This document shows positions 1,582 through 61,043 of a DNA stretch of 64,000 bases, piece by piece. Location: the NCBI GenBank assembly GCA_964467225.1, contig CAYXPQ010000001.1, forward strand, positions 75,803 to 139,802, written 5' to 3'. Source of the DNA: an uncultured Candidatus Saccharibacteria bacterium (GTDB taxonomy: Bacteria; Patescibacteriota; Minisyncoccia; Phycocordibacterales; PALSA-1337). The translations under genes were made by a program, and so were the position numbers. Position 1 is the first letter of the stretch. Every line of letters begins with the position of its first letter. Under the pieces are notes generated by a model. The model was given only the letters and a program-made list of their open reading frames with translations, ran no database searches and was not told the DNA's origin.

Positions 1582-2061
1582 ATGTTCGGTATACACTTAA
1601 AGCATGTTCTTGTTCTAACTCTGTTGGCAGGTATAGCATATTCTTTGCCACAAGTTAAAGACGGACTTTCAGATTCTTTCTCCAGTATATATGTGCAAAA
1701 TCAAGCAGCACTTTTTAATTTTCCAAATATTAATCCTCAAAATAGCTATGGTAATAGAATGATGAATAATCAGGCTATAGGTGTTGGGGAGATTAAGAAA
1801 ATGATAATTGTTCCTGAAGAAATAGTACGTGTTCTAGTCAAAGAAGGAGTAATTCCACAAGACAAAGCAGTTCTTGCAGTAAAAATCTTGAAGGAAAGAC
1901 TATTTAATAATCAACCAATGCCTCCACAACAACAAGGAGCAAGTACCACTAGACCAAATGTAATAAGGGTACAGGTATCTACTTCTTCACGACCTATGAT
2001 GAAATTGGAATTACAGAGATCTCCATATGAATTTCAGGAAAGGGTACAACTGGATAACTAA
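1582..2061 (+). CDS. hypothetical secreted protein (N-terminal signal-like hydrophobic segment, Q/N/P-rich)
   Basis: 159-aa ORF with an ATG start. The N-terminus has the signal-peptide-like stretch LVLTLLAGIAYS. Terminators lie before and after the gene. Confidence 0.5.
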   Translation: MFGIHLKHVLVLTLLAGIAYSLPQVKDGLSDSFSSIYVQNQAALFNFPNINPQNSYGNRMMNNQAIGVGEIKKMIIVPEEIVRVLVKEGVIPQDKAVLAVKILKERLFNNQPMPPQQQGASTTRPNVIRVQVSTSSRPMMKLELQRSPYEFQERVQLDN

Positions 2062-2094
2062 TCTTTTATAGGTATCCTTTTGGGTTTATAATAA

Positions 2095-2116
2095 AGACCA
2101 GTTAAGCTGGTTTTTA
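2095..2116 (+). terminator. rho-independent terminator-like hairpin
   Basis: Hairpin accag-ttaag-ctggt followed by a T5 run. Confidence 0.45.
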
Positions 2117-2134
2117 TTATTTATTATTTAATTT

Positions 2135-5100
2135 ATGAAGAATATTATTAAAGTTTCTGTTTCAATATCTGTAATTTTTGTAGTTTTATTTGGTTTTAAT
2201 ATACAAATTTCAAATGCACAGACAAATTCTAATAAAGTTTTGAGTGGAGCTTGTATTTCTATAAACTCTTCTAAAACAATGAAAATTTCTTCCGGTAAAG
2301 TTTATATTAACGGAAAGGAATATGAATATACTGGGGGCGGCGGAAGTTTTCCAAGTAATAAATCATTTCCACTTTATGTAAAAACTCTTTATGGAAGTGT
2401 ATATAATCCATTGCCTGGAGAGGGTAAGGATGGTCCAGATAGTCTTAAGATTGGATATGTTACTACAGGTAAAGATAGTTTGATTACTGAAATAGTAAAT
2501 GTTTCACCATGGTGTGAGAATTATTCTTATGATATTGCAACAACAGCTACTACAAGTAAACCAGTAATAAAGGTTATTAGTCCAAATGGAGGAGAAGTTT
2601 TATATGTTGGCCAAAGTTATCCTGTAAAGTGGAGTGACAACAGTGGAGATGTAAGCAATGTATCTATTTCCCTAATAGATTACAATTCTGGAACGGAATT
2701 TAATCTATCTGGAGATGTCTCATCTAGGTCTTCAGGTGTAGATGGAACAAGCGTTTATTCACTACTAATACCGTCATATATAACAAAGAATATGACAACT
2801 ACAGGTGATGGTAACAATAAATTTAAAATTAGAATTTATTCTAAAAATGGAGCGGTAGATTCAAGTGATAACTATTTTACTGTAAGATCTACAACAACGC
2901 CATCTCTAAAAGTTATTAGTCCAAATGGTGGTGAGACACTATTAATGGAAGGATATTATCCTATAAAATGGTATGACACTAGGGATAGAAGCGATGTTAC
3001 TATATTTCTCGTTGATTACAAAAGCGGAACTGCAATACCTTTAGCTAGTAATGTATCTGTTACTGCATCAGGTATTGATGGTATAAGTACTTATACAGTC
3101 CAAATTCCAGGATATGTAGAAAGAAAGTTGGCAGTCGATACTAAGAGCTTTAAAATTAGAGTTGATTCAACTGGCGGGAGTGATTTAAGTGATGATTACA
3201 TTACTATAGCTTCTGCAACTTCTTCCAGCATAGACACCCCATGCTTTACTTTTAACAGAGACCTATCATACGGATCAGAGAACAAGGAAGTTGACTATCT
3301 AGTCAAAGCTCTACTTAAAGAAGGATCAATAAGAAATCCAAATAATCTAACTATTAAAAGTGAGAAATTTGATGAATCAGTATTAACTGGTGTAGTAGCA
3401 TTTCAAGGTAAATACGGAATACCACAAACAGGATATGTAGGACCTCTTACAAGAGCGATGTTAAATCGACTTTATGGTAATTGTAATCAGAGTGAGAATA
3501 TTTCTGCTACATTAAAGTTAATTAGCCCAAATGGTGAGTTATATAATGTTGGCTCAAGAGTTCCAATCTCATGGAATCACAATGGTAATCTAAAGAGTGT
3601 AACAATAGATATAATGACTGCTGATGGACAGAAAACATTACTTTCTCAATCATATAATGAAAATCCAGGAAGATATTCTTTCTTAGTAGCTACAGGAACA
3701 CCAGAAGGTAAGTATATGGTAAGAATAAGAACAACCAACTATTCTTCAAGTAATTATTTCTATGTGGGTAGCACAGGAAATTCTGCGACAAACTCAAAAT
3801 GTGATTTTGAGGTAAAATCACCAATAGCAAATTCTAAGGTTAACTTCCCACTGACAGTAACTGGTACTATAGATAGAAGTAAGTCAAATAATGCTGGATG
3901 TAGATGGCAAACATTTGAAGGGGTAGCTGGTACGGCCAAATTTTACGCTTATCTTACAGAAAAGAATCGTGATGGAACAATGAAAGGCTGGACATCAATA
4001 GGTGATTCAGTAATTATGAATCTAGAGAAAGTTAACTCAGATAAATCAAATTTTAATGTCAGATTTAATTTTCCGGAGGGAGGTTTCCAAATTAATAATC
4101 CAGTTAAGATTGTGTTTACAGAGGAAAATCCAGCAGCAATACGTCCAGCACTTACCTTTGAATTACCATTATACTTAGATACCTCAGGAAATTCTGCGAC
4201 AACAACTCCAAACATCTCCAAGGCTCAAATATCTGGTTCATGTGTTCTGAGTGCACCATCTGGTTATGCCATTACTTCAGGTAAATTAAAATTAAACGAT
4301 AAAGAATATTCATTTAGTGGTGGAAGAGGGTCATATTTGCCAAGTAATAGAGTAATGCCAGTATATCTATATATGCCAAGAGAGGGTTATGTGGCAAGTT
4401 ACGTATATTTGAATCCACCAGTAAATGTAGGGGTTGGAACAACTACAGCATTGAAGATTGCAACAATTGTTACAGGAGATAAAGGGGTTATAAGAAATAT
4501 TTATAATCTAAATCCTCTTTGTCAAAGTTATACAAATATCAAAGCTGAAGCAACATCAGTGCCTACAACTAATCAAACAATAAAGGTTATAAGTCCAAAT
4601 GGTGGGGAAGTGTGGCAGATAGGTAAGACATATGAATTTAGATGGAGTTCAAGTGGAATAGATAAGGTAATGATCAATCTTACAAATCAAGATAATAATT
4701 TTGGATATGGTACATTGAATGCTATTGATGCGAGAACAGGAAGGGTCACCTATACACTTCCAAATACTCTACCGGCAGGTAAATACAAAGTATTTATGGT
4801 GGATGCATCAGGTAAAACAATTACAAATGATTCAAGTGATAATTATTTCACAATAGTAAATTCAACATCAGGATATACACCAACTCCATCTACTACATAC
4901 ACTCCATATCCAAGCTATACACCTACATACTCACCAACTCCAAGTCAAACATATAATTCATACCCAACAGCAACCTACACCTCATCACCAACATACACAA
5001 CTAGCCCAACATATTCATCTACTCCAACATATACCTATACACCAAGTCCAACTTATTCATCATCACCTACAGCAACATATTCACCTAGTTATACATACAG

Positions 5101-5218
5101 TCCAAGTCCATCATATTCACCATCGCCATCTTCTTCACCGACTTCATTCTATGATATAGACAGGTTCTCATTAGGTGCAGCAATACTTAGTGCATTTAGG
5201 GGAATGATGGGGTTGTAG
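2135..5218 (+). CDS. large secreted surface repeat protein with a peptidoglycan-binding domain and an S/T/P/Y-rich tail
   Basis: 1027-aa ORF with a signal peptide. It has at least four internal repeats of a ~90-aa module carrying the motif (I/V)SPNGGE..W..G..Y.(I/F)(K/R)W; this resembles the Kre9/KNH-like family (tentative). A PG_binding_1-like segment is present (DYLVKALLKEG..VVAFQGKYGIPQTGYVGPLTRAML). There are duplicated large N-terminal and central modules (SGKVYINGKEYEY... and SGKLKLNDKEYSF...). The C-terminus has ~90 aa of T/P/S/Y-rich low complexity followed by a short hydrophobic end. Confidence 0.75.
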   Translation: MKNIIKVSVSISVIFVVLFGFNIQISNAQTNSNKVLSGACISINSSKTMKISSGKVYINGKEYEYTGGGGSFPSNKSFPLYVKTLYGSVYNPLPGEGKDGPDSLKIGYVTTGKDSLITEIVNVSPWCENYSYDIATTATTSKPVIKVISPNGGEVLYVGQSYPVKWSDNSGDVSNVSISLIDYNSGTEFNLSGDVSSRSSGVDGTSVYSLLIPSYITKNMTTTGDGNNKFKIRIYSKNGAVDSSDNYFTVRSTTTPSLKVISPNGGETLLMEGYYPIKWYDTRDRSDVTIFLVDYKSGTAIPLASNVSVTASGIDGISTYTVQIPGYVERKLAVDTKSFKIRVDSTGGSDLSDDYITIASATSSSIDTPCFTFNRDLSYGSENKEVDYLVKALLKEGSIRNPNNLTIKSEKFDESVLTGVVAFQGKYGIPQTGYVGPLTRAMLNRLYGNCNQSENISATLKLISPNGELYNVGSRVPISWNHNGNLKSVTIDIMTADGQKTLLSQSYNENPGRYSFLVATGTPEGKYMVRIRTTNYSSSNYFYVGSTGNSATNSKCDFEVKSPIANSKVNFPLTVTGTIDRSKSNNAGCRWQTFEGVAGTAKFYAYLTEKNRDGTMKGWTSIGDSVIMNLEKVNSDKSNFNVRFNFPEGGFQINNPVKIVFTEENPAAIRPALTFELPLYLDTSGNSATTTPNISKAQISGSCVLSAPSGYAITSGKLKLNDKEYSFSGGRGSYLPSNRVMPVYLYMPREGYVASYVYLNPPVNVGVGTTTALKIATIVTGDKGVIRNIYNLNPLCQSYTNIKAEATSVPTTNQTIKVISPNGGEVWQIGKTYEFRWSSSGIDKVMINLTNQDNNFGYGTLNAIDARTGRVTYTLPNTLPAGKYKVFMVDASGKTITNDSSDNYFTIVNSTSGYTPTPSTTYTPYPSYTPTYSPTPSQTYNSYPTATYTSSPTYTTSPTYSSTPTYTYTPSPTYSSSPTATYSPSYTYSPSPSYSPSPSSSPTSFYDIDRFSLGAAILSAFRGMMGL

Positions 5219-5250
5219 AAGTTATCAACTTTTAACAGAATTAATTTAAA

Positions 5251-5289
5251 AATATACTTTATGGGTGAAGAATATCCATAAAGTATATC
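5251..5289 (+). promoter_or_regulatory. perfect inverted repeat spanning the start codon of the downstream protease gene
   Basis: The sequence is aatATACTTTATGG-gtgaagaatat-CCATAAAGTATatc. Each arm is 11 bp perfect (13/14 when extended). The loop begins with the GTG start codon at 5265, and a T-rich tract follows. Confidence 0.5.
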
Positions 5290-7349
5290 TTTTCATATTA
5301 ATTTTTCTATTCAGTTCATCACCTGTATCAGCGATTGAGATTCAGTGCATAAATAATGAAACAAACGATTTAGCTTTTCATGTTAATAATCAAATAGACA
5401 ATAGAATTAAATTGTCTGATTCATCAACGGGGTTAAATATCTATAGTGTTAGGTCTACTGAGGCAGGGTCAAATTGGACTAGGAATTCTAATTCTTGGAC
5501 TCAAAAATTATCACCTCTAGATTTTACTGGAGTAAGTGGATCAAATAATGATTTAGCACATCATGCTAACAATCCTTATTGGGGAGGGGCAACACTTATT
5601 ACTCCAAGACATTTTGTAACAGCAAATCACTTTAGATTTGAAAATGGTTCAACTGTTAATTTCTATGATAAGGAGGGAAGGGTAGTCTCTAGGAAAATGA
5701 CTAATTCCTATACAGTTCCAAATACTGATATTACAGTAGGACTACTCGAAAGCGATGTCGATAACAGTATCACATATTATCCTGTTATGAAAATTTCTAC
5801 ATTAGAGAGTATGTTATCAAGACCAGACGGATATTTCTATAATGATTTACCAATAGTAGTATTTAATCAAAATGCACAAGCAATAATTCGCTCCCTTATA
5901 AAAAAAGACACACCAAAAAGTTTTAATCATGCTAATTACGGTGATAGTATTAGATCTAGCTTCACCAAGGACTTAATAGAAGGAGACTCAGGACAGCCAG
6001 GTTTTATTATCATTAATGATAAGCCAATTTTACTTTTTGCAAATTTTCTAACGAATACATCTCCAAGTTTGGGTGATTATATTAATGAAATAAATTCTGG
6101 CATACAATCTTTGGGAAATAGTAATGGATATAATATTACAGAATATACAAATAATAATTTTAAAACATATAGTTCATTCTGTACTGGGCCAGTGTTACCA
6201 TCGCCTGATCAGTTTAAAGTTACAACAAATACCGCATGCTTATCTCCTACAGATAAATTAAAGGTAGATATAACTTGGTCTAAGCCACTAAATTATTCTA
6301 TGCAATCTAGTGGATATCAGTATAGATTATATAAGAACAATCAATCTCCAGATTTCTTATCAATGAATACTTATAATTATACTGATATAAATGTTCAACC
6401 TAATACAGAATATACTTACATATTAAAACTATATTACGGAACATATTCATCAGGTGAAGTAAAATTCCAAATAAAAACTCCATCTTTGTGCTCATCTTCT
6501 GTTATAGTAAATAATCCTCCAGTTGTTGTATCTAATCCAGTTCCAGTTACTACTCCTCTATCCAATTATGAACCTTTACCAGCCAAAAATAATGATGCGG
6601 ATAAGGACGGAATAATAGACGGCCTGGATATGTGTCCAAATACAAGTATTGATCAAAAAAGTTTTGTTAATACCAAAGGATGCATTAAACCAAAAATAAC
6701 TAAATTTAGTTTTTCAAAAGATTTATCCAATATTGATCTTAGAGAAGTTGATAATCTTGAAATATCTAATTCATATGGAAGGGTGTTGTTCACTTCACCC
6801 GTTTCACTTACAAGATCTAATCAACAATTAGACATTGATACTAATTTATACATTGGCAATAATATAGTTTCATTAAATTCTGTTAATCTTCCTGAATTAA
6901 ATAGGGGAGCGATAATTACATTTAACAATCTTTCCTATAGAAATCCAGTAATATATAAAGATGATTCAATTTGTACTACTTGTGAAGTTGTTTCTTATAC
7001 CAATAATACTTTCAGATTTAAAGTCCTAGGATTTTCAAATTATTCTGTTGTAGATATGCCACTTATTCCAGACAAACCTGTAATAATAGATAACCCCATT
7101 CAGGATCCAACTCAACCTGTGACAATTACGCAACCCGCAGTACAGCCAGTAATCATTACTCAGTCAGTTGTTAATCAGAGTGTTGTCCAACAAGTACAGA
7201 CACCACCAACACAACAAACAAAACCATTATCACAACAAGGAATACCAAAACTCCAATCAAATCCCAACATTGAAGTTCCAGTTGATAATAATCAAGTACC
7301 AGATGCAGATATTTTTAATACTGGTTATTTCCCTGAAGATATATATTGA
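5265..7349 (+). CDS. secreted trypsin-like (S1 family) serine protease with Fn3-like domain, thrombospondin-type-3-like Ca-binding repeat and Q/P/V-rich C-terminus
   Basis: 694-aa ORF with a GTG start and a signal peptide ending VSA|IEI. His motif WGGATLITPRHFVTANHF, compared with trypsin CGGSLI..WVLTAAHC. Asp candidate in NTDITVGLL. Ser motif EGDSGQPGF, compared with GDSGGP. An Fn3-like region follows (YQYRLYKNNQSP...TEYTYILKLYYG), then DADKDGIIDGLDMCPNT (TSP3/OmpA-like Ca-binding). Confidence 0.65.
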   Translation: MKNIHKVYLFILIFLFSSSPVSAIEIQCINNETNDLAFHVNNQIDNRIKLSDSSTGLNIYSVRSTEAGSNWTRNSNSWTQKLSPLDFTGVSGSNNDLAHHANNPYWGGATLITPRHFVTANHFRFENGSTVNFYDKEGRVVSRKMTNSYTVPNTDITVGLLESDVDNSITYYPVMKISTLESMLSRPDGYFYNDLPIVVFNQNAQAIIRSLIKKDTPKSFNHANYGDSIRSSFTKDLIEGDSGQPGFIIINDKPILLFANFLTNTSPSLGDYINEINSGIQSLGNSNGYNITEYTNNNFKTYSSFCTGPVLPSPDQFKVTTNTACLSPTDKLKVDITWSKPLNYSMQSSGYQYRLYKNNQSPDFLSMNTYNYTDINVQPNTEYTYILKLYYGTYSSGEVKFQIKTPSLCSSSVIVNNPPVVVSNPVPVTTPLSNYEPLPAKNNDADKDGIIDGLDMCPNTSIDQKSFVNTKGCIKPKITKFSFSKDLSNIDLREVDNLEISNSYGRVLFTSPVSLTRSNQQLDIDTNLYIGNNIVSLNSVNLPELNRGAIITFNNLSYRNPVIYKDDSICTTCEVVSYTNNTFRFKVLGFSNYSVVDMPLIPDKPVIIDNPIQDPTQPVTITQPAVQPVIITQSVVNQSVVQQVQTPPTQQTKPLSQQGIPKLQSNPNIEVPVDNNQVPDADIFNTGYFPEDIY

Positions 7350-7467
7350 ATATGAGAAGCCAAGTTACTATAGGATTGCCGTAGATTTTGTAAAACATCA
7401 AGCAAATGAAATTATTGGAAGAATTACTAGAGGTTTTATGAAAATATGGAGTAAAATTTGACAAGCA

Positions 7468-7501
7468 AATGCGTACTTGCTATGATGGCGAGTACGCATT
7501 T
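7468..7501 (+). terminator. stem-loop (possible terminator) downstream of the protease gene
   Basis: Perfect 11-bp stem aaatgcgtact ... agtacgcattt with a 12-nt loop. The tract after it is only weakly U-rich. Confidence 0.4.
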
Positions 7502-7592
7502 AGCGTTGGTGTTTCTAGGGTTACTACCCTTATTTTATTAATTTAGTTAACAATTTATCTTTAATTCTTCGGGATTAAAGCACTAAAATTAT

Positions 7593-8780
7593 ATGGCAGC
7601 AGAATTTAATCGTTCAAAGACCCATGTTAACGTAGGTACTATTGGCCACGTGGATCATGGAAAGACAACACTTACTACTTCAATTCTAGCAGTACAAGCA
7701 AAAGACGGTCTTGCTACACTCAAGGCTTATGCTGATATTGCAAAGGGAGGTACTGTTCGAGATGCAACAAAGGTGGTTACTATTTCTCTAGCTCACGTAG
7801 AATACGAGACAGCAAATAGACATTATGCTCATATCGATGCTCCAGGTCACGCTGATTACATAAAGAACATGATCACAGGTGCCGCTCAGATGGACGGTGC
7901 TATTCTTGTAGTATCTGCTCTTGATGGAGTTATGCCACAAACAAGAGAGCATATTCTTCTAGCTTATCAGGTTGGAGTGCCAAATATTGTTGTTTTCCTT
8001 AATAAATGCGACATGGTTGCTGAAGCTGATCTACTAGATCTAGTGGAAGAAGAGGTAAGAGATCTTCTTACAAAGAACCACTACGATGGTAAGAATGCTA
8101 CAGTTATCAGAGGTTCTGCTCTAAAAGCTCTTGAGGGTGATCCAGTATGGGTAGCCAAGATCAAGGATCTTATGAACGCTCTAGATACAGCAATCCCAAC
8201 ACCAGTACGCGAAACAGATAAGCCATTCCTTATGCCAATTGAAGACATCTTCTCAATCGAAGGTAGAGGAACAGTAGTAACAGGCCGTGTAGAAAGAGGA
8301 ACTCTAAATCTAAACGACGAAGTTGAAATAATTGGATTCAAGGATACTTCAAAGACTACAGTTACAGGTATTGAAATGTTCAATAAGTCTCTAAAGCAAG
8401 CTATTGCTGGAGATAATGCTGGACTTCTGCTAAGAGGAACAGGCAAGGATGATGTCACAAGAGGTATGGTTCTTGCAAAAACTGGCTCAGTAAAGCCACA
8501 TACAGATTTTGAAGCTGAGGTATACATCCTTAAGAAAGAAGAGGGAGGAAGACACACACCTTTCTTTACAGGATATAAGCCACAGTTCTACATCAGAACA
8601 ACAGATGTTACAGGAGAAGTAACACTAGCTCAGGGAGTTGAGATGGTTATGCCTGGAGATACAGTAACATTTAAGGTTAAGCTAGTAGCACCAGTAGCTC
8701 TTGAAGACAAAATGAGATTTGCTATTCGAGAGGGGGGTAAGACAGTAGGTGCAGGAGTTGTAACAAAGATTGTTGCATAA
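7593..8780 (+). CDS. tuf: elongation factor Tu
   Basis: 395 aa with [19 protein letters not shown] and NKCD GTPase motifs; full-length EF-Tu. Confidence 0.97.
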
Positions 8781-36488: not shown

Positions 36489-36575
36489 GGAGAGATGGGT
36501 GAGTGGTTTAAACCAGCGGTTTACTAAACCGCCGTTCTTTAATTAGAACCGCGAGTTCGAATCTCGCTCTCTCCG
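36489..36575 (+). tRNA. type II tRNA-Ser-like gene with apparent anticodon ACU (unusual)
   Basis: Acceptor GGAGAGA/TCTCTCC, anticodon arm GCGGT-TTACTAA-ACCGC, long variable arm gttct-ttaat-agaac, T-arm GCGAG-TTCGAAT-CTCGC and discriminator G. Confidence 0.65.
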
Positions 36576-36577
36576 CA

Positions 36578-56486: not shown

Positions 56487-56603
56487 TTTTGTGAATAATG
56501 TTGTTGATTGTACATATAGAAGTTGTATAATTATGAGCATGTGAGTACTAATAAGGCTGTTGCCTAACTGTTAGTATTTACCAAAATAGAATGTCTACAT
56601 AAG

Positions 56604-56630
56604 ATTCTGCCTTGGCAGAATTTTGTGTTT
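56604..56630 (+). terminator. rho-independent terminator after the tRNA cluster
   Basis: Stem attctgcc-ttg-ggcagaat followed by ttttgtgtttt. Confidence 0.6.
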
Positions 56631-56664
56631 TACAGAGGTAAATATTAAATGTATAATTCTATAT

Positions 56665-57864
56665 ATGACGAATAGAGAAAGACTTGGAATAGTTTTTATT
56701 AGTCTATTTGTACTTTTTAGTTTAGTCTCATCAACTAGCCAGTTTGATCTCAACTATATTTTTACTAAAGTAAATAATTTATCAAATTCAATTCTTGCAA
56801 AAGTTGGTGATGCCTTACCAAATGAGACCCCAATAGCAAAATCTAATTCTGATACAGTTCAAGTGATTAAACCTAGTGATAGTCTCTTAGTTCAACTTGA
56901 AAATATAAATGATAATCAAGTCTTTTCAGTTGATAGATGTGAGACGAAGGAATCTCTTGCAAGATACCCTATCGACAAAAATAAGTTAGCTAAAGATGCA
57001 AAATGCACAGCAGGATACATGGAAGGTACTGTTTTGAATATCAAAATCGCTAATGCAAATAATAGTGTTGAAATTCTTGATGATCTAATTAAATTACTAA
57101 AAGGCACTTTAAATAATCTTAATGCAAAAGGCACAATAGATGGTATGGTAATTGCTGGCCTTCCTGTAGGTGCAGAGATAAAGACAGTAATAGAAAATGC
57201 CAATAATATCTCAGTTGCATGTATAAACAAAGATGGTGATAAGTTGAAAAATCAAAGAGTTGGAAAGTATAAGCCAGTTAATGATGAAATGTATACTTCT
57301 GTTACAGAAGAACAAAAGAAGAGTCTAGAATTTATCAAAAATGGAATTAAAGATTTAAATACAAAAATCCAGAAGTCACAGGAAAGTAAAGAAGATATAG
57401 TACAAAAATTATTGCTCCAGTCATTGGAGATTGTAAAAAGATTTAAAACAGATTTCATACCAGTTGATGCGTCACTTCTGGCAGATAATAGAAATCTTGA
57501 TAATCTAGCTAAATTAAAAATGACTGTTGATATGCAAAAAGATAATTCAAATAATCTTATAATAGATAATCCGAATAAATTCTTATCATATAAGATAAGT
57601 ATAGCAACAAGATTTATGTCTGGCATTCCGCATATTAGTGAACCTTATTATAAGGGCAAGGTTACAATGTCTGTAGAAGATGAAAGTATTGAGAATGACA
57701 CTGTGGTGATTCCAGAACCAATTATTTTTAAAGATTTGAGGGAGACTATTGTTGCCAAAATCAATGAATTAACAAAAATAAGATCAAAGTTTGCAAAAAA
57801 TTTATCAATAGCTCAAGAATCAAAGAAAAAGTTGGAATCAAATAGTTATTATTGCCAACTGTAA
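56665..57864 (+). CDS. hypothetical secreted protein
   Basis: Start moved to ATG 56665 (MTNRERLGIVFISLFVLF...). This places the terminator at 56604–56630 upstream of the gene. Signal peptide. No recognisable family. Confidence 0.55.
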   Translation: MTNRERLGIVFISLFVLFSLVSSTSQFDLNYIFTKVNNLSNSILAKVGDALPNETPIAKSNSDTVQVIKPSDSLLVQLENINDNQVFSVDRCETKESLARYPIDKNKLAKDAKCTAGYMEGTVLNIKIANANNSVEILDDLIKLLKGTLNNLNAKGTIDGMVIAGLPVGAEIKTVIENANNISVACINKDGDKLKNQRVGKYKPVNDEMYTSVTEEQKKSLEFIKNGIKDLNTKIQKSQESKEDIVQKLLLQSLEIVKRFKTDFIPVDASLLADNRNLDNLAKLKMTVDMQKDNSNNLIIDNPNKFLSYKISIATRFMSGIPHISEPYYKGKVTMSVEDESIENDTVVIPEPIIFKDLRETIVAKINELTKIRSKFAKNLSIAQESKKKLESNSYYCQL

Positions 57865-60023: not shown

Positions 60024-61043
60024 ATGAAAATTACGGAGAATCAGGGATTGAAAGAATTGACTACATTTAAAACTGGTGGGAATGCTCGTTATTTTTGTAT
60101 TGTTACAAATGAAGATGAGCTTATAGAAGCTATTGGATTTTCTAAAAAAAATAAAATTCCTTTTTTCATATTAGGTGGTGGCTCTAATATTCTTGTAGCA
60201 GACAAGGGCTTTGATGGTCTTGTAATAAAGATTGAAATAAAGGGAATAAAGTATGAAGAGAATGGAAATTCTGTAAAAGCAATTGTAGGAGCAGGGGAGA
60301 ATTGGGATAATCTGGTAGCTGATACAATAGAAAGAGGATATTATGGTCTTGAGAATCTTTCTTTAATTCCTGGTACTGTGGGAGCTTCTCCGGTGCAGAA
60401 TATTGGCGCGTATGGAAGCGAGGTCAAAGATACTATTGAATCCGTCTATGTTCTAGATGTTAAAAAAGACGAATACAAAACTTTTTCAAATTCAGAATGT
60501 GATTTTTCATATAGAGATAGTATTTTTAAAAAAGAAAAGGGTAGATATGTGGTTATTTATGTTACTTTTAATTTAAATAAAGATGGCAAATTAAATTTAA
60601 CTTATAAGGATGTACAAGAATATTTTAATAAAAGGCAGAATTCCAATCCAAGTCTAAGACAAGTTAGAAATGCAATAGTTGATATTCGGACAAATAAATT
60701 ACCAAATTTGCAGGAATATGGTACTGCTGGATCATTTTTCAAAAATGTGATTGTTTCTCAAGCGAAAGCAAGGGAATTGGTCTCAAAATATCCGGATATA
60801 ATAGTTCATCAAGTAAATGATAAGAAAGTCAAAATCCCATTGGCTTGGATACTTGATAATATTTGTGGATTTAAGGGTAAAAGAAAGGGAAATGTCGGTG
60901 TCTACAAAAATCAGGCATTAGTATTGGTAAATTATGGCAATGCAATTTCAAATGAGGTTATTGAGTTAGCTCAAGAGATGGTGGACTGTGTATATGAAAA
61001 GACTGGTATTGAGATTTTTCCTGAGGTGGAATATGTGATATAG
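60024..61043 (+). CDS. murB: UDP-N-acetylenolpyruvoylglucosamine reductase
   Basis: 339 aa with an FAD-binding region (ILGGGSNIL) and a MurB C-terminal domain. Confidence 0.88.
   Translation: MKITENQGLKELTTFKTGGNARYFCIVTNEDELIEAIGFSKKNKIPFFILGGGSNILVADKGFDGLVIKIEIKGIKYEENGNSVKAIVGAGENWDNLVADTIERGYYGLENLSLIPGTVGASPVQNIGAYGSEVKDTIESVYVLDVKKDEYKTFSNSECDFSYRDSIFKKEKGRYVVIYVTFNLNKDGKLNLTYKDVQEYFNKRQNSNPSLRQVRNAIVDIRTNKLPNLQEYGTAGSFFKNVIVSQAKARELVSKYPDIIVHQVNDKKVKIPLAWILDNICGFKGKRKGNVGVYKNQALVLVNYGNAISNEVIELAQEMVDCVYEKTGIEIFPEVEYVI

Follow-up and report, generated by a model that had tools for sequence, protein, structure and literature searches.

We investigated a palindrome that surrounds the start codon of orf694, a putative secreted-protease gene in a 64,000-nucleotide (nt) stretch of contig CAYXPQ010000001.1, which derives from an uncultured Candidatus Saccharibacteria bacterium and is referred to below as the window. 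The window is bacterial, as indicated by a transfer-messenger RNA (tmRNA) and transfer RNAs (tRNAs), and the locus belongs to the str/S10 ribosomal region. Here, fusA (20-1456) is followed by three inserted genes, orf159 (1582-2061), orf1027 (2135-5218), and orf694 (5265-7349), and then by tuf (7593-8780), rpsJ, rplC, and rplD. The products of orf159 and orf1027 start with hydrophobic, signal-like N-termini, as does that of orf694. The gene directly upstream of the palindrome, orf1027 (2135..5218, + strand, stop codon TAG at 5216-5218), encodes a predicted secreted or surface protein, based on this N-terminus and on PG_binding_1 and Kre9_KNH Ig-like domains detected with Pfam. The fusA-tuf interval (1582-7349) thus holds three secreted/surface-protein genes that interrupt the otherwise universal gene order of the str operon.

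The earlier note, made from the sequence alone, described the product of orf694 as a secreted protease, and structure prediction agreed well with this description. The gene occupies 5265..7349 of the + strand in the list of open reading frames (ORFs) and encodes 694 amino acids with a signal-peptide-like N-terminus, MKNIHKVYLFILIFLFSSSPVSA, as read from the translation. In the AlphaFold model, the predicted local distance difference test score (pLDDT) exceeds 90 over residues 30-410. A Foldseek search with this model matched chymotrypsin, granzyme A, tPA, and Vibrio VesC, with an FN3 domain following the protease fold; the FN3-like domain is in turn accompanied by low-complexity regions. Among 26 homologues, S242 (in GDSGQP) is invariant, and H122 (in TANHF) and D155 are nearly so. 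A Pfam scan of the product gave no match. Overall, the model and these residues support, at the level of the fold, a secreted serine protease of the trypsin/chymotrypsin type.

To place the locus in a comparative context, we used protein-based searches, which recovered seven further syntenic loci comprising six distinct sequences, whose proteins are 45-66% identical to those of the window: L003 (with identical copies L004/L005), L006, L007, L008 (with L009-L011), L012, L028, and L029. Their gene order consists of an upstream surface-protein gene, the protease gene, and, where the contig reaches it, tuf. A profile search for additional close relatives found none. The GTG at 5265 is the earliest possible start of orf694 after the in-frame stop codon, and every orthologue has an ATG at the aligned position, so the start at 5265 is well supported.

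The palindrome is centered on this start codon. The window reads ...aaaaATATACTTTATGG GTGAAGAATAT CCATAAAGTATATcttttcat from 5240 to 5300, in which two perfectly complementary arms of 13 base pairs (bp) occupy 5252-5264 (5' arm, ATATACTTTATGG) and 5276-5288 (3' arm, CCATAAAGTATAT) and enclose a loop of 11 nt (5265-5275, GTGAAGAATAT). The sequence quoted in the earlier note is correct and its arms are indeed perfect, but the interval of 5251-5289 that it assigned to the palindrome is one base too wide on each side, as positions 5251 and 5289 form an A·C mismatch. Three more A-U pairs lie beyond the mismatch, between the AAA at 5248..5250 (+ strand; AAAG in the orthologues) and the UUU at 5290-5292, and a repeat search accordingly extended the hairpin to 17 nt at 94% complementarity (5248-5264 / 5276-5292). 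As RNA, the loop can also shrink to 5 nt if G·U, U-A, and G·U pairs form within it. As the note stated, the GTG at 5265-5267, the first start codon of the 694-residue ORF, is the first triplet of the loop. The 3' arm covers codons 5-8 of orf694 and the final base of codon 4, in the n-region of the signal peptide. The T-rich tract that the note reported on the 3' side of the hairpin, CTTTTCATATT, is likewise present; the tail at 5289..5300 (+ strand) reads CTTTTCATATTA in the window and UUCUUUUU in most orthologues, and it is a candidate for the U-tract of a terminator and at the same time codes for the signal peptide's hydrophobic core.

Could such a palindrome have arisen by chance, or be a non-functional remnant such as the relic of a mobile-element end or a product of replication slippage? 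The composition of the genome (~35% G+C) and of the arms (77% A+T) would favor such an origin. However, stems of at least 13 bp appeared at a rate of 0.017 per dinucleotide shuffle (in 1 of 60 shuffles), corresponding to ~0.02 expected per window, and the 64 kilobases (kb) contain only four perfect hairpins with stems of 10 bp or more (loop 3-15), among which the palindrome is the longest. The 45-nt element folds as RNA at -16.9 kcal/mol (z = -6.6). Allowing up to two mismatches, the arm is not enriched elsewhere in the 64-kb window, so that the element is single-copy there. The comparison with the orthologous loci, where compensatory conservation persists while the surrounding intergenic bases and the proteins have diverged, leaves a chance or non-functional origin so improbable that we regard it as effectively refuted.

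A hairpin is found at the same place in all seven further syntenic loci, that is, in 8/8 with the window. RNAalifold predicted a 12-bp core and a 4-bp outer helix (AAAG/CUUU) in all sequences, and the core includes 11 bp of the 5' arm (5252..5264, + strand) that are paired in every one of the eight loci. Across this 16-pair structure, 99.2% of the alignment cells are standard pairs. Three pairs are retained through changes on both sides: L008 has A-U in place of G-C, L003 has G·U in place of U-A, and L006 has G-C in place of A-U in the outer helix. Four pairs show one-sided wobble changes, and the core pairs are intact in every locus. The observed pairing values were reached in only 3 of 500 column shuffles, and sliding the partners against each other left 39-66% of them paired. 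The stem is conserved while the sequence of the loop varies. The earlier note had named two outcomes that would speak against a function, absence of the palindrome from orthologous loci and dispersal through the genome as a repeat. What we found was the opposite in both cases: the hairpin is present at all orthologous loci, and a covariance model built from the eight sequences, run over the window and 24 related loci (206 kb), recovered only the orthologous site. More distant homologues of the protease (~40% identity), labeled Patescibacteria or Candidatus Paceibacterota by their sources, lie in other genomic contexts, often after a tRNA, and lack the hairpin. The labels of these homologues are what places the organism in the Patescibacteria/Paceibacterota in this comparison. 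A search of Rfam 15 matched no family; the only hits, mir-965 (19.7 bits, with the gathering score at 43) and K10_TLS, were at chance level.

These comparisons also addressed whether selection acts on RNA, on DNA, or on the encoded peptide. Across loci, the + strand folds at -14.6 to -21 kcal/mol and the - strand at -8.3 to -16.8 kcal/mol, and in every locus the + strand is at least as stable as the - strand. The difference is clear in L003 (-19.5 vs -8.3) and L006 (-21.0 vs -11.3); there, the one-sided changes and the U-A to G·U change give G·U pairs on the + strand and A·C mismatches on the - strand, which weakens the latter. Moreover, L012 and L029 have a loop of 10 nt, and consequently the 19-nt CCATAAAGTATTTCTTTTT is translated there in a different frame (MKSSIKYFF... 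vs MKNIHKVYLF...), with the frame regained by a 2-nt gap further on. The nucleotides are conserved all the same, and we therefore ruled out that the 3' arm is kept for its peptide. Together, across six independent sequences of one narrow clade, the pairing bias toward the sense strand and the retention of nucleotides through a change of frame show, at the level of sequence comparison, selection on a sense-strand RNA helix rather than on the peptide or on symmetric DNA half-sites. The palindrome is a real, evolutionarily conserved sense-strand RNA hairpin.

This result bears directly on the proposal of the earlier note that the palindrome is a DNA operator for a dimeric repressor. In this reading, the repressor would block initiation by binding the inverted repeat, which covers -13 to +24 of the orf694 promoter. 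A position over a -10 element and a transcription start is typical of repressor operators, the half-sites of L008 change symmetrically (G to A, C to T), and the window and L007 have palindromes of equal quality on the two strands. The half-sites of L003 and L006, by contrast, change asymmetrically, leaving G·U pairs in the sense RNA and non-identical half-sites in DNA, and in L012 and L029 the center-to-center spacing is off by 1 bp (10 vs 11 nt). All 11-12 arm positions stay paired, which is more than a helix-turn-helix dimer reads, and the motif occurs nowhere else in the window or the 24 related loci. We also considered a regulator encoded beside the hairpin and rejected it: the three ORFs between fusA and tuf have the appearance of secreted or surface proteins and not of regulators, none of them gave a hit to a DNA-binding domain, and the flanking genes encode translation factors. 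An operator is thus disfavored, and we consider it very improbable.

To interpret an RNA hairpin at a start codon, we examined how genes start in this genome. Shine-Dalgarno (SD) motifs were not visible upstream of the ~67 ORFs inspected. Defining -10-like hexamers as TANNNT with at least 5/6 matches to TATAAT, we found a sharp mode of their positions at a distance (d) of 6 nt before the start codon, in 9 genes compared with 1.4 expected. Five of these nine carry an exact TATAAT (gene starts 32063, 32707-, 38736, 43262, and 56025); the gene start at 60024 is a further example cited for this type of start. Six bases between a -10 box and a start codon place the start codon at +1, the signature of a leaderless mRNA. 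In addition, start regions (-20 to +30) are unstructured, with a median of -2.75 kcal/mol compared with -5.8 kcal/mol for random 50-mers. The lack of SD motifs, the d = 6 peak, and the unstructured starts suggest that leaderless or near-leaderless mRNAs are widespread in this lineage. Our literature search found nothing direct on leaderless initiation in the candidate phyla radiation (CPR)/Patescibacteria, nor a description for CPR of missing SD motifs together with -10 boxes 6 nt before starts.

The protease gene belongs to the d = 6 class. Its -10-like hexamer, TATACT (5253..5258, + strand), lies within the 5' arm and is separated by TTATGG from the GTG; it is invariant in the eight loci and is the putative promoter element of a leaderless orf694 mRNA. 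The base at +1 would be a purine throughout, the G of GTG in the window and the A of ATG in the orthologues, so that the loop (5265..5275, + strand) would begin with both the start codon and the transcription start. Homologues without the hairpin show a similar arrangement, namely TATAAT-6-ATG (L053), TATAAT-7-ATG (L014/L030), and TATACT-7-ATG (L032). The start region of orf694 is an extreme outlier among 66 gene starts (-16.9 kcal/mol, z = -6.2), whereas its first 50 nt counted from the start codon fold at -4.1 kcal/mol, which is ordinary for the genome. In four loci, RNAs with the start codon at their 5' end did not fold better than shuffled sequences (z ~ -0.8 to +0.7). The orf694 promoter is probably leaderless, and we infer from its sequence a transcription start at 5265.

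In combination, these findings lead us to a model in which a terminator or insulator of the upstream gene overlies a leaderless promoter; we prefer it tentatively, with confidence a little short of even. The stem-loop has a core of 11-13 bp, which wobble and outer pairs lengthen to as much as 16-19 bp, and a U-rich tract on its 3' side. Its 5' arm would also supply the -10 element (TATACT) and the discriminator of a promoter that starts transcription at the protease start codon. Transcripts initiated there would be unable to form the hairpin, which would be restricted to read-through RNA from orf1027. On such RNA it would act as the intrinsic terminator or 3'-end hairpin of orf1027, with termination presumably at the U-tract, and any read-through RNA that escaped termination would have the protease start region buried. 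RNA initiated at the start codon, by comparison, would be leaderless, would lack the 5' arm, and would be the unstructured, translatable form.

Several observations fit the terminator part of this model. The hairpin follows the stop codon of the co-directional orf1027 by 34 nt, and all syntenic loci share this order of stop codon and hairpin. T occupies 5 of the 8 positions that follow the stem in the window and 7 of 8 in most orthologues. Two scans, a consensus scan and a separate hairpin scan, both flagged the hairpin as terminator-like, and its energy in the terminator scan (-16.2 kcal/mol) lies between the extremes of -12 and -22 seen for the genome's other intergenic terminator-like hairpins. 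The earlier note had offered termination of the upstream gene as an alternative to translational control. It is the best-fitting candidate among the roles considered.

Other observations weigh against the combined model. The stem is AU-rich, with 3 G-C pairs close to the loop and none at the base, whereas G+C-rich stems prevail among the remaining terminator-like hairpins of the genome. The loop measures 9-11 nt unless wobble pairs close it to 5 nt. In the window, the U-tract is interrupted (CUUUUCAU, 5/8 U), part of it pairs with the upstream A-tract, and its composition is also accounted for by signal-peptide codons for Phe/Leu in an AT-rich genome. On the promoter side, the -35 region is weak (TGTAAA-like), the conservation of TATACT is confounded with pairing, as the same bases form the 5' arm, and the putative 5'-terminal start codon of the window is GTG and not ATG. 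The start at 5265 and termination near 5290-5300 are both deduced from the letters of the element. Since the other junction hairpins of the locus are not conserved, the hairpin may also be more than a generic terminator. Finally, the comparison comprises six independent sequences only, all from one narrow clade.

A role in translation, which the earlier note had placed first, would follow if the hairpin were part of a co-transcript or of an mRNA started upstream of 5248. The start codon and the first 8 codons would then be helical, and protease synthesis would be low or conditional on melting, a helicase, a binding protein, or ribosome read-through. The note's premise of a folded start region agrees with the conserved, covarying sense-RNA helix and with changes tolerated on the sense strand only. 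The helix covers -13 to +24 and takes in the start codon's first base in 8/8 loci and all three of its bases in L006. A structure of -16.9 kcal/mol would be strongly inhibitory in a genome that lacks SD motifs and whose starts are otherwise unstructured. The gap between the upstream gene and the protease gene is only 46-56 nt in all loci, and a TAAAAT upstream in L012 and L029 could set a transcription start at the base of the hairpin. Upstream -10 elements are inconsistent, however, being seen in L012, L029, and weakly in the window, compared with the invariant TATACT at leaderless spacing, and homologues located elsewhere use -10 boxes at d = 6-7 without a hairpin. The hairpin shows no evident ligand- or protein-binding features, its loop is variable, and no alternative anti-hairpin structure is apparent. 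Moreover, constant burial of the start codon, the most occluded start in the genome, would silence a conserved gene. As TATACT at d = 6 implies a leaderless mRNA, the presence of the 5' arm in the protease mRNA is doubtful, and with it the sequestration that the note proposed. Translational occlusion is therefore unlikely as the main role of the element, in our assessment, but it can coexist with the terminator and leaderless promoter on read-through transcripts. For the note's further suggestion, tight control of a potentially self-damaging protease, the structure is the only support.

The note's out-of-frame ATG (5261) in the 5' arm exists in the window but is lost in L003 (TAGGG) and L008 (TATAG). 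A conserved upstream ORF initiated there was therefore dropped from consideration.

The length and regularity of the duplex raise a different possibility, that the hairpin is an RNase III-like target or a protective 3'-terminal structure that uncouples the stability of the two cistrons. The window, L003, and L006 offer 16-19 contiguous pairs, the stem is conserved while the loop varies, and RNase III is discussed among the conserved RNases in a survey of ribosome-biogenesis factors that stresses their reduction in CPR/Patescibacteria (PMC12641178). In most loci, however, the helix is shorter than typical RNase III substrates (~two helical turns) and has a 2x2 internal loop, and this role leaves unexplained the invariant -10-like hexamer at leaderless spacing. 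We judge it improbable.

Returning to the terminator over a leaderless promoter, its most specific form treats the 45-nt palindrome as a triple-use module that serves as upstream terminator or insulator, as leaderless -10 element and start, and as the first codons and signal-peptide core. Two RNA isoforms would result, a read-through form that is folded, terminated, and untranslatable, and a leaderless form that is open and translatable. We regard this full version as possible but rather less than probable.

Each ingredient of this arrangement has known counterparts. In Mycoplasma gallisepticum, whose genome is AT-rich and reduced, the typical mapped terminator contains 5 A-T pairs, with two G-C pairs beside the loop (PMC4245973). 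The hairpin described here resembles these intrinsic terminators in its mostly A-U stem with few G-C pairs beside the loop, its U-rich tract, and its position soon after a co-directional stop codon. It differs in its stem of 11-16 bp, compared with the 7-bp Mycoplasma type, and in its loop of 9-11 nt. Unlike in intrinsic terminators, the 3' arm and the U-tract also lie within the first 12 codons of the next gene, and the 5' arm overlaps a putative -10 box.

In the leaderless mRNAs of Actinobacteria and Deinococcus, the -10 box lies ~7 nt upstream of the start codon, and mycobacteria accept GTG as the 5'-terminal start codon of a leaderless mRNA. The leaderless mRNAs of M. tuberculosis are the subject of Cortes et al. 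2013, as cited in PMC12641261. The orf694 start is similar in its TATAAT-like hexamer 6 nt before A/GTG, its lack of an SD motif, and the predicted unstructured 5' end of its RNA. It is unlike known leaderless mRNAs in that the putative promoter is embedded in the arm of a conserved hairpin, and in its host, a member of CPR/Patescibacteria.

The phage MS2/R17 replicase operator is a hairpin that contains a start codon and is bound by coat protein. As in this operator and in RNA thermometers, the start codon sits atop a conserved hairpin, and initiation is predicted to be blocked when the RNA is folded. Here, in contrast to both, no binding protein or temperature logic is evident, the loop is unconserved, and the 5' arm is probably absent from the protease mRNA; compared with RNA thermometers, the stem is also much longer and more perfect. 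Intercistronic RNase III hairpins are known from the phage T7 early region and from rpsO-pnp, and in T7 early RNA they uncouple the stabilities of two cistrons. The present hairpin shares with them a long, near-perfect duplex between co-directional cistrons; unlike them, it spans less than two helical turns in most loci and overlaps coding sequence and a promoter-like hexamer. The ingredients, intrinsic terminator, leaderless promoter, and start-region hairpin, are therefore known, and their stacking on one palindrome in a CPR genome is an unusual variant.

The surroundings of the hairpin provided additional observations. In every syntenic locus, the neighbor upstream of the protease gene is co-directional. 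The size of this upstream partner ranges from 335 to 1027 amino acids across orthologous loci, and its C-terminal tail is conserved. We ruled out that orf1027 and orf694 are paralogues, as they show no similarity. Directly after the orf1027 stop codon lies a conserved box, AGTTATCAAC (5220..5229, + strand; -45 to -36 from the start codon), in which TTAT.AAC is invariant in 8 loci. In L028, an insertion shifts it by 8 nt. The box is not enriched elsewhere in the window, and this, together with its variable spacing to the hairpin, led us to reject it as a shared regulatory motif. An archaeal TATA-box reading of the A/T-rich upstream region was also dropped, given the tmRNA and the bacterial ribosomal operons.

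On the minus strand, the palindrome arm provides a mirror TATACT at 5282-5287, for which the consensus scan lists TAGAAA-16-TATACT; this element could initiate antisense transcripts that run into the 3' end of orf1027. At the other end of the protease gene, the orthologues extend by ~37 residues (..EKPSY..RI.SGF..) past the orf694 stop at 7349. In the window, this tail is encoded in another frame (7350-7461, within ORF 7168-7461), and orf694 of the window therefore has a frameshift or an early stop near its 3' end. A second assembly (L001) contains the same 694-residue product and a 52-residue ORF.

The other gene junctions of the locus also carry hairpins. A terminator-like hairpin at 1514-1549 lies just downstream of a promoter-like TTGTGA-16-TATAAT. 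Another, at 2088-2120, shares bases with a TATAAT (2087-2092); downstream of it, a TATTAT lies 7 nt ahead of the ATG of orf1027. Neither of the two is present in L009. At 7467-7501, a perfect 11-bp palindrome, AAATGCGTACT..AGTACGCATTT, holds the -10 box of the tuf promoter (TATGAT) in its loop; it is not kept as a pair, as L006 has a changed 5' arm and an unchanged 3' arm. A general rule of hairpins at these junctions was dropped, as none of the three is conserved in the orthologues.

The ~125 nt upstream of tuf (window 7458-7592; L003, L006, L007, and L008) are almost invariant, while the flanking proteins are 49-66% identical. This stretch begins with a TTGACA-17-TATGAT promoter (7458-7486) and continues as a conserved leader with small hairpins, AGGGTTACTACCCT with a T-tract at 7517-7530 and CTTTAATTC..GGATTAAAG near 7559-7580, the second of which has a loop insertion in two loci. 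The stretch has no match in Rfam and may represent an undescribed leader RNA of the tuf/S10 operon.

Elsewhere in the window, the second most structured start region belongs to ORF 56623-57864, downstream of tRNA-Thr. Its putative TTG start (56623) is overlapped by a hairpin with a T-tract, TAAGATTCTGCC-TTGG-CAGAATTTTG (56600-56625), and may be mis-called. ARAGORN assigned the anticodon ACT to a tRNA-Ser and TAT to a tRNA-Ile (36489-36576 and 31877-31951, respectively), and Rfam confirmed both as tRNAs. An A34 anticodon is unusual, and the assignment may be mistaken.

The wider impact of the element is modest, as it is lineage-restricted (eight known loci) and of a familiar kind. For annotation, the comparison supports GTG 5265 as the true start of the protease gene, and it indicates that start-codon hairpins in such genomes need not signal translational control. 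CPR/Patescibacteria are mostly uncultured, and we found little published on how their transcription and translation start and stop. In an extremely compact genome, a single stretch of 45 bases may serve as terminator, promoter, and beginning of a coding sequence, and leaderless initiation without Shine-Dalgarno motifs may be the rule in this lineage. If the triple-use module is real, it would provide an example of isoform-specific accessibility of a start codon in a CPR bacterium and, together with the peak of -10 boxes 6 nt before start codons, evidence that the lineage relies on leaderless initiation.

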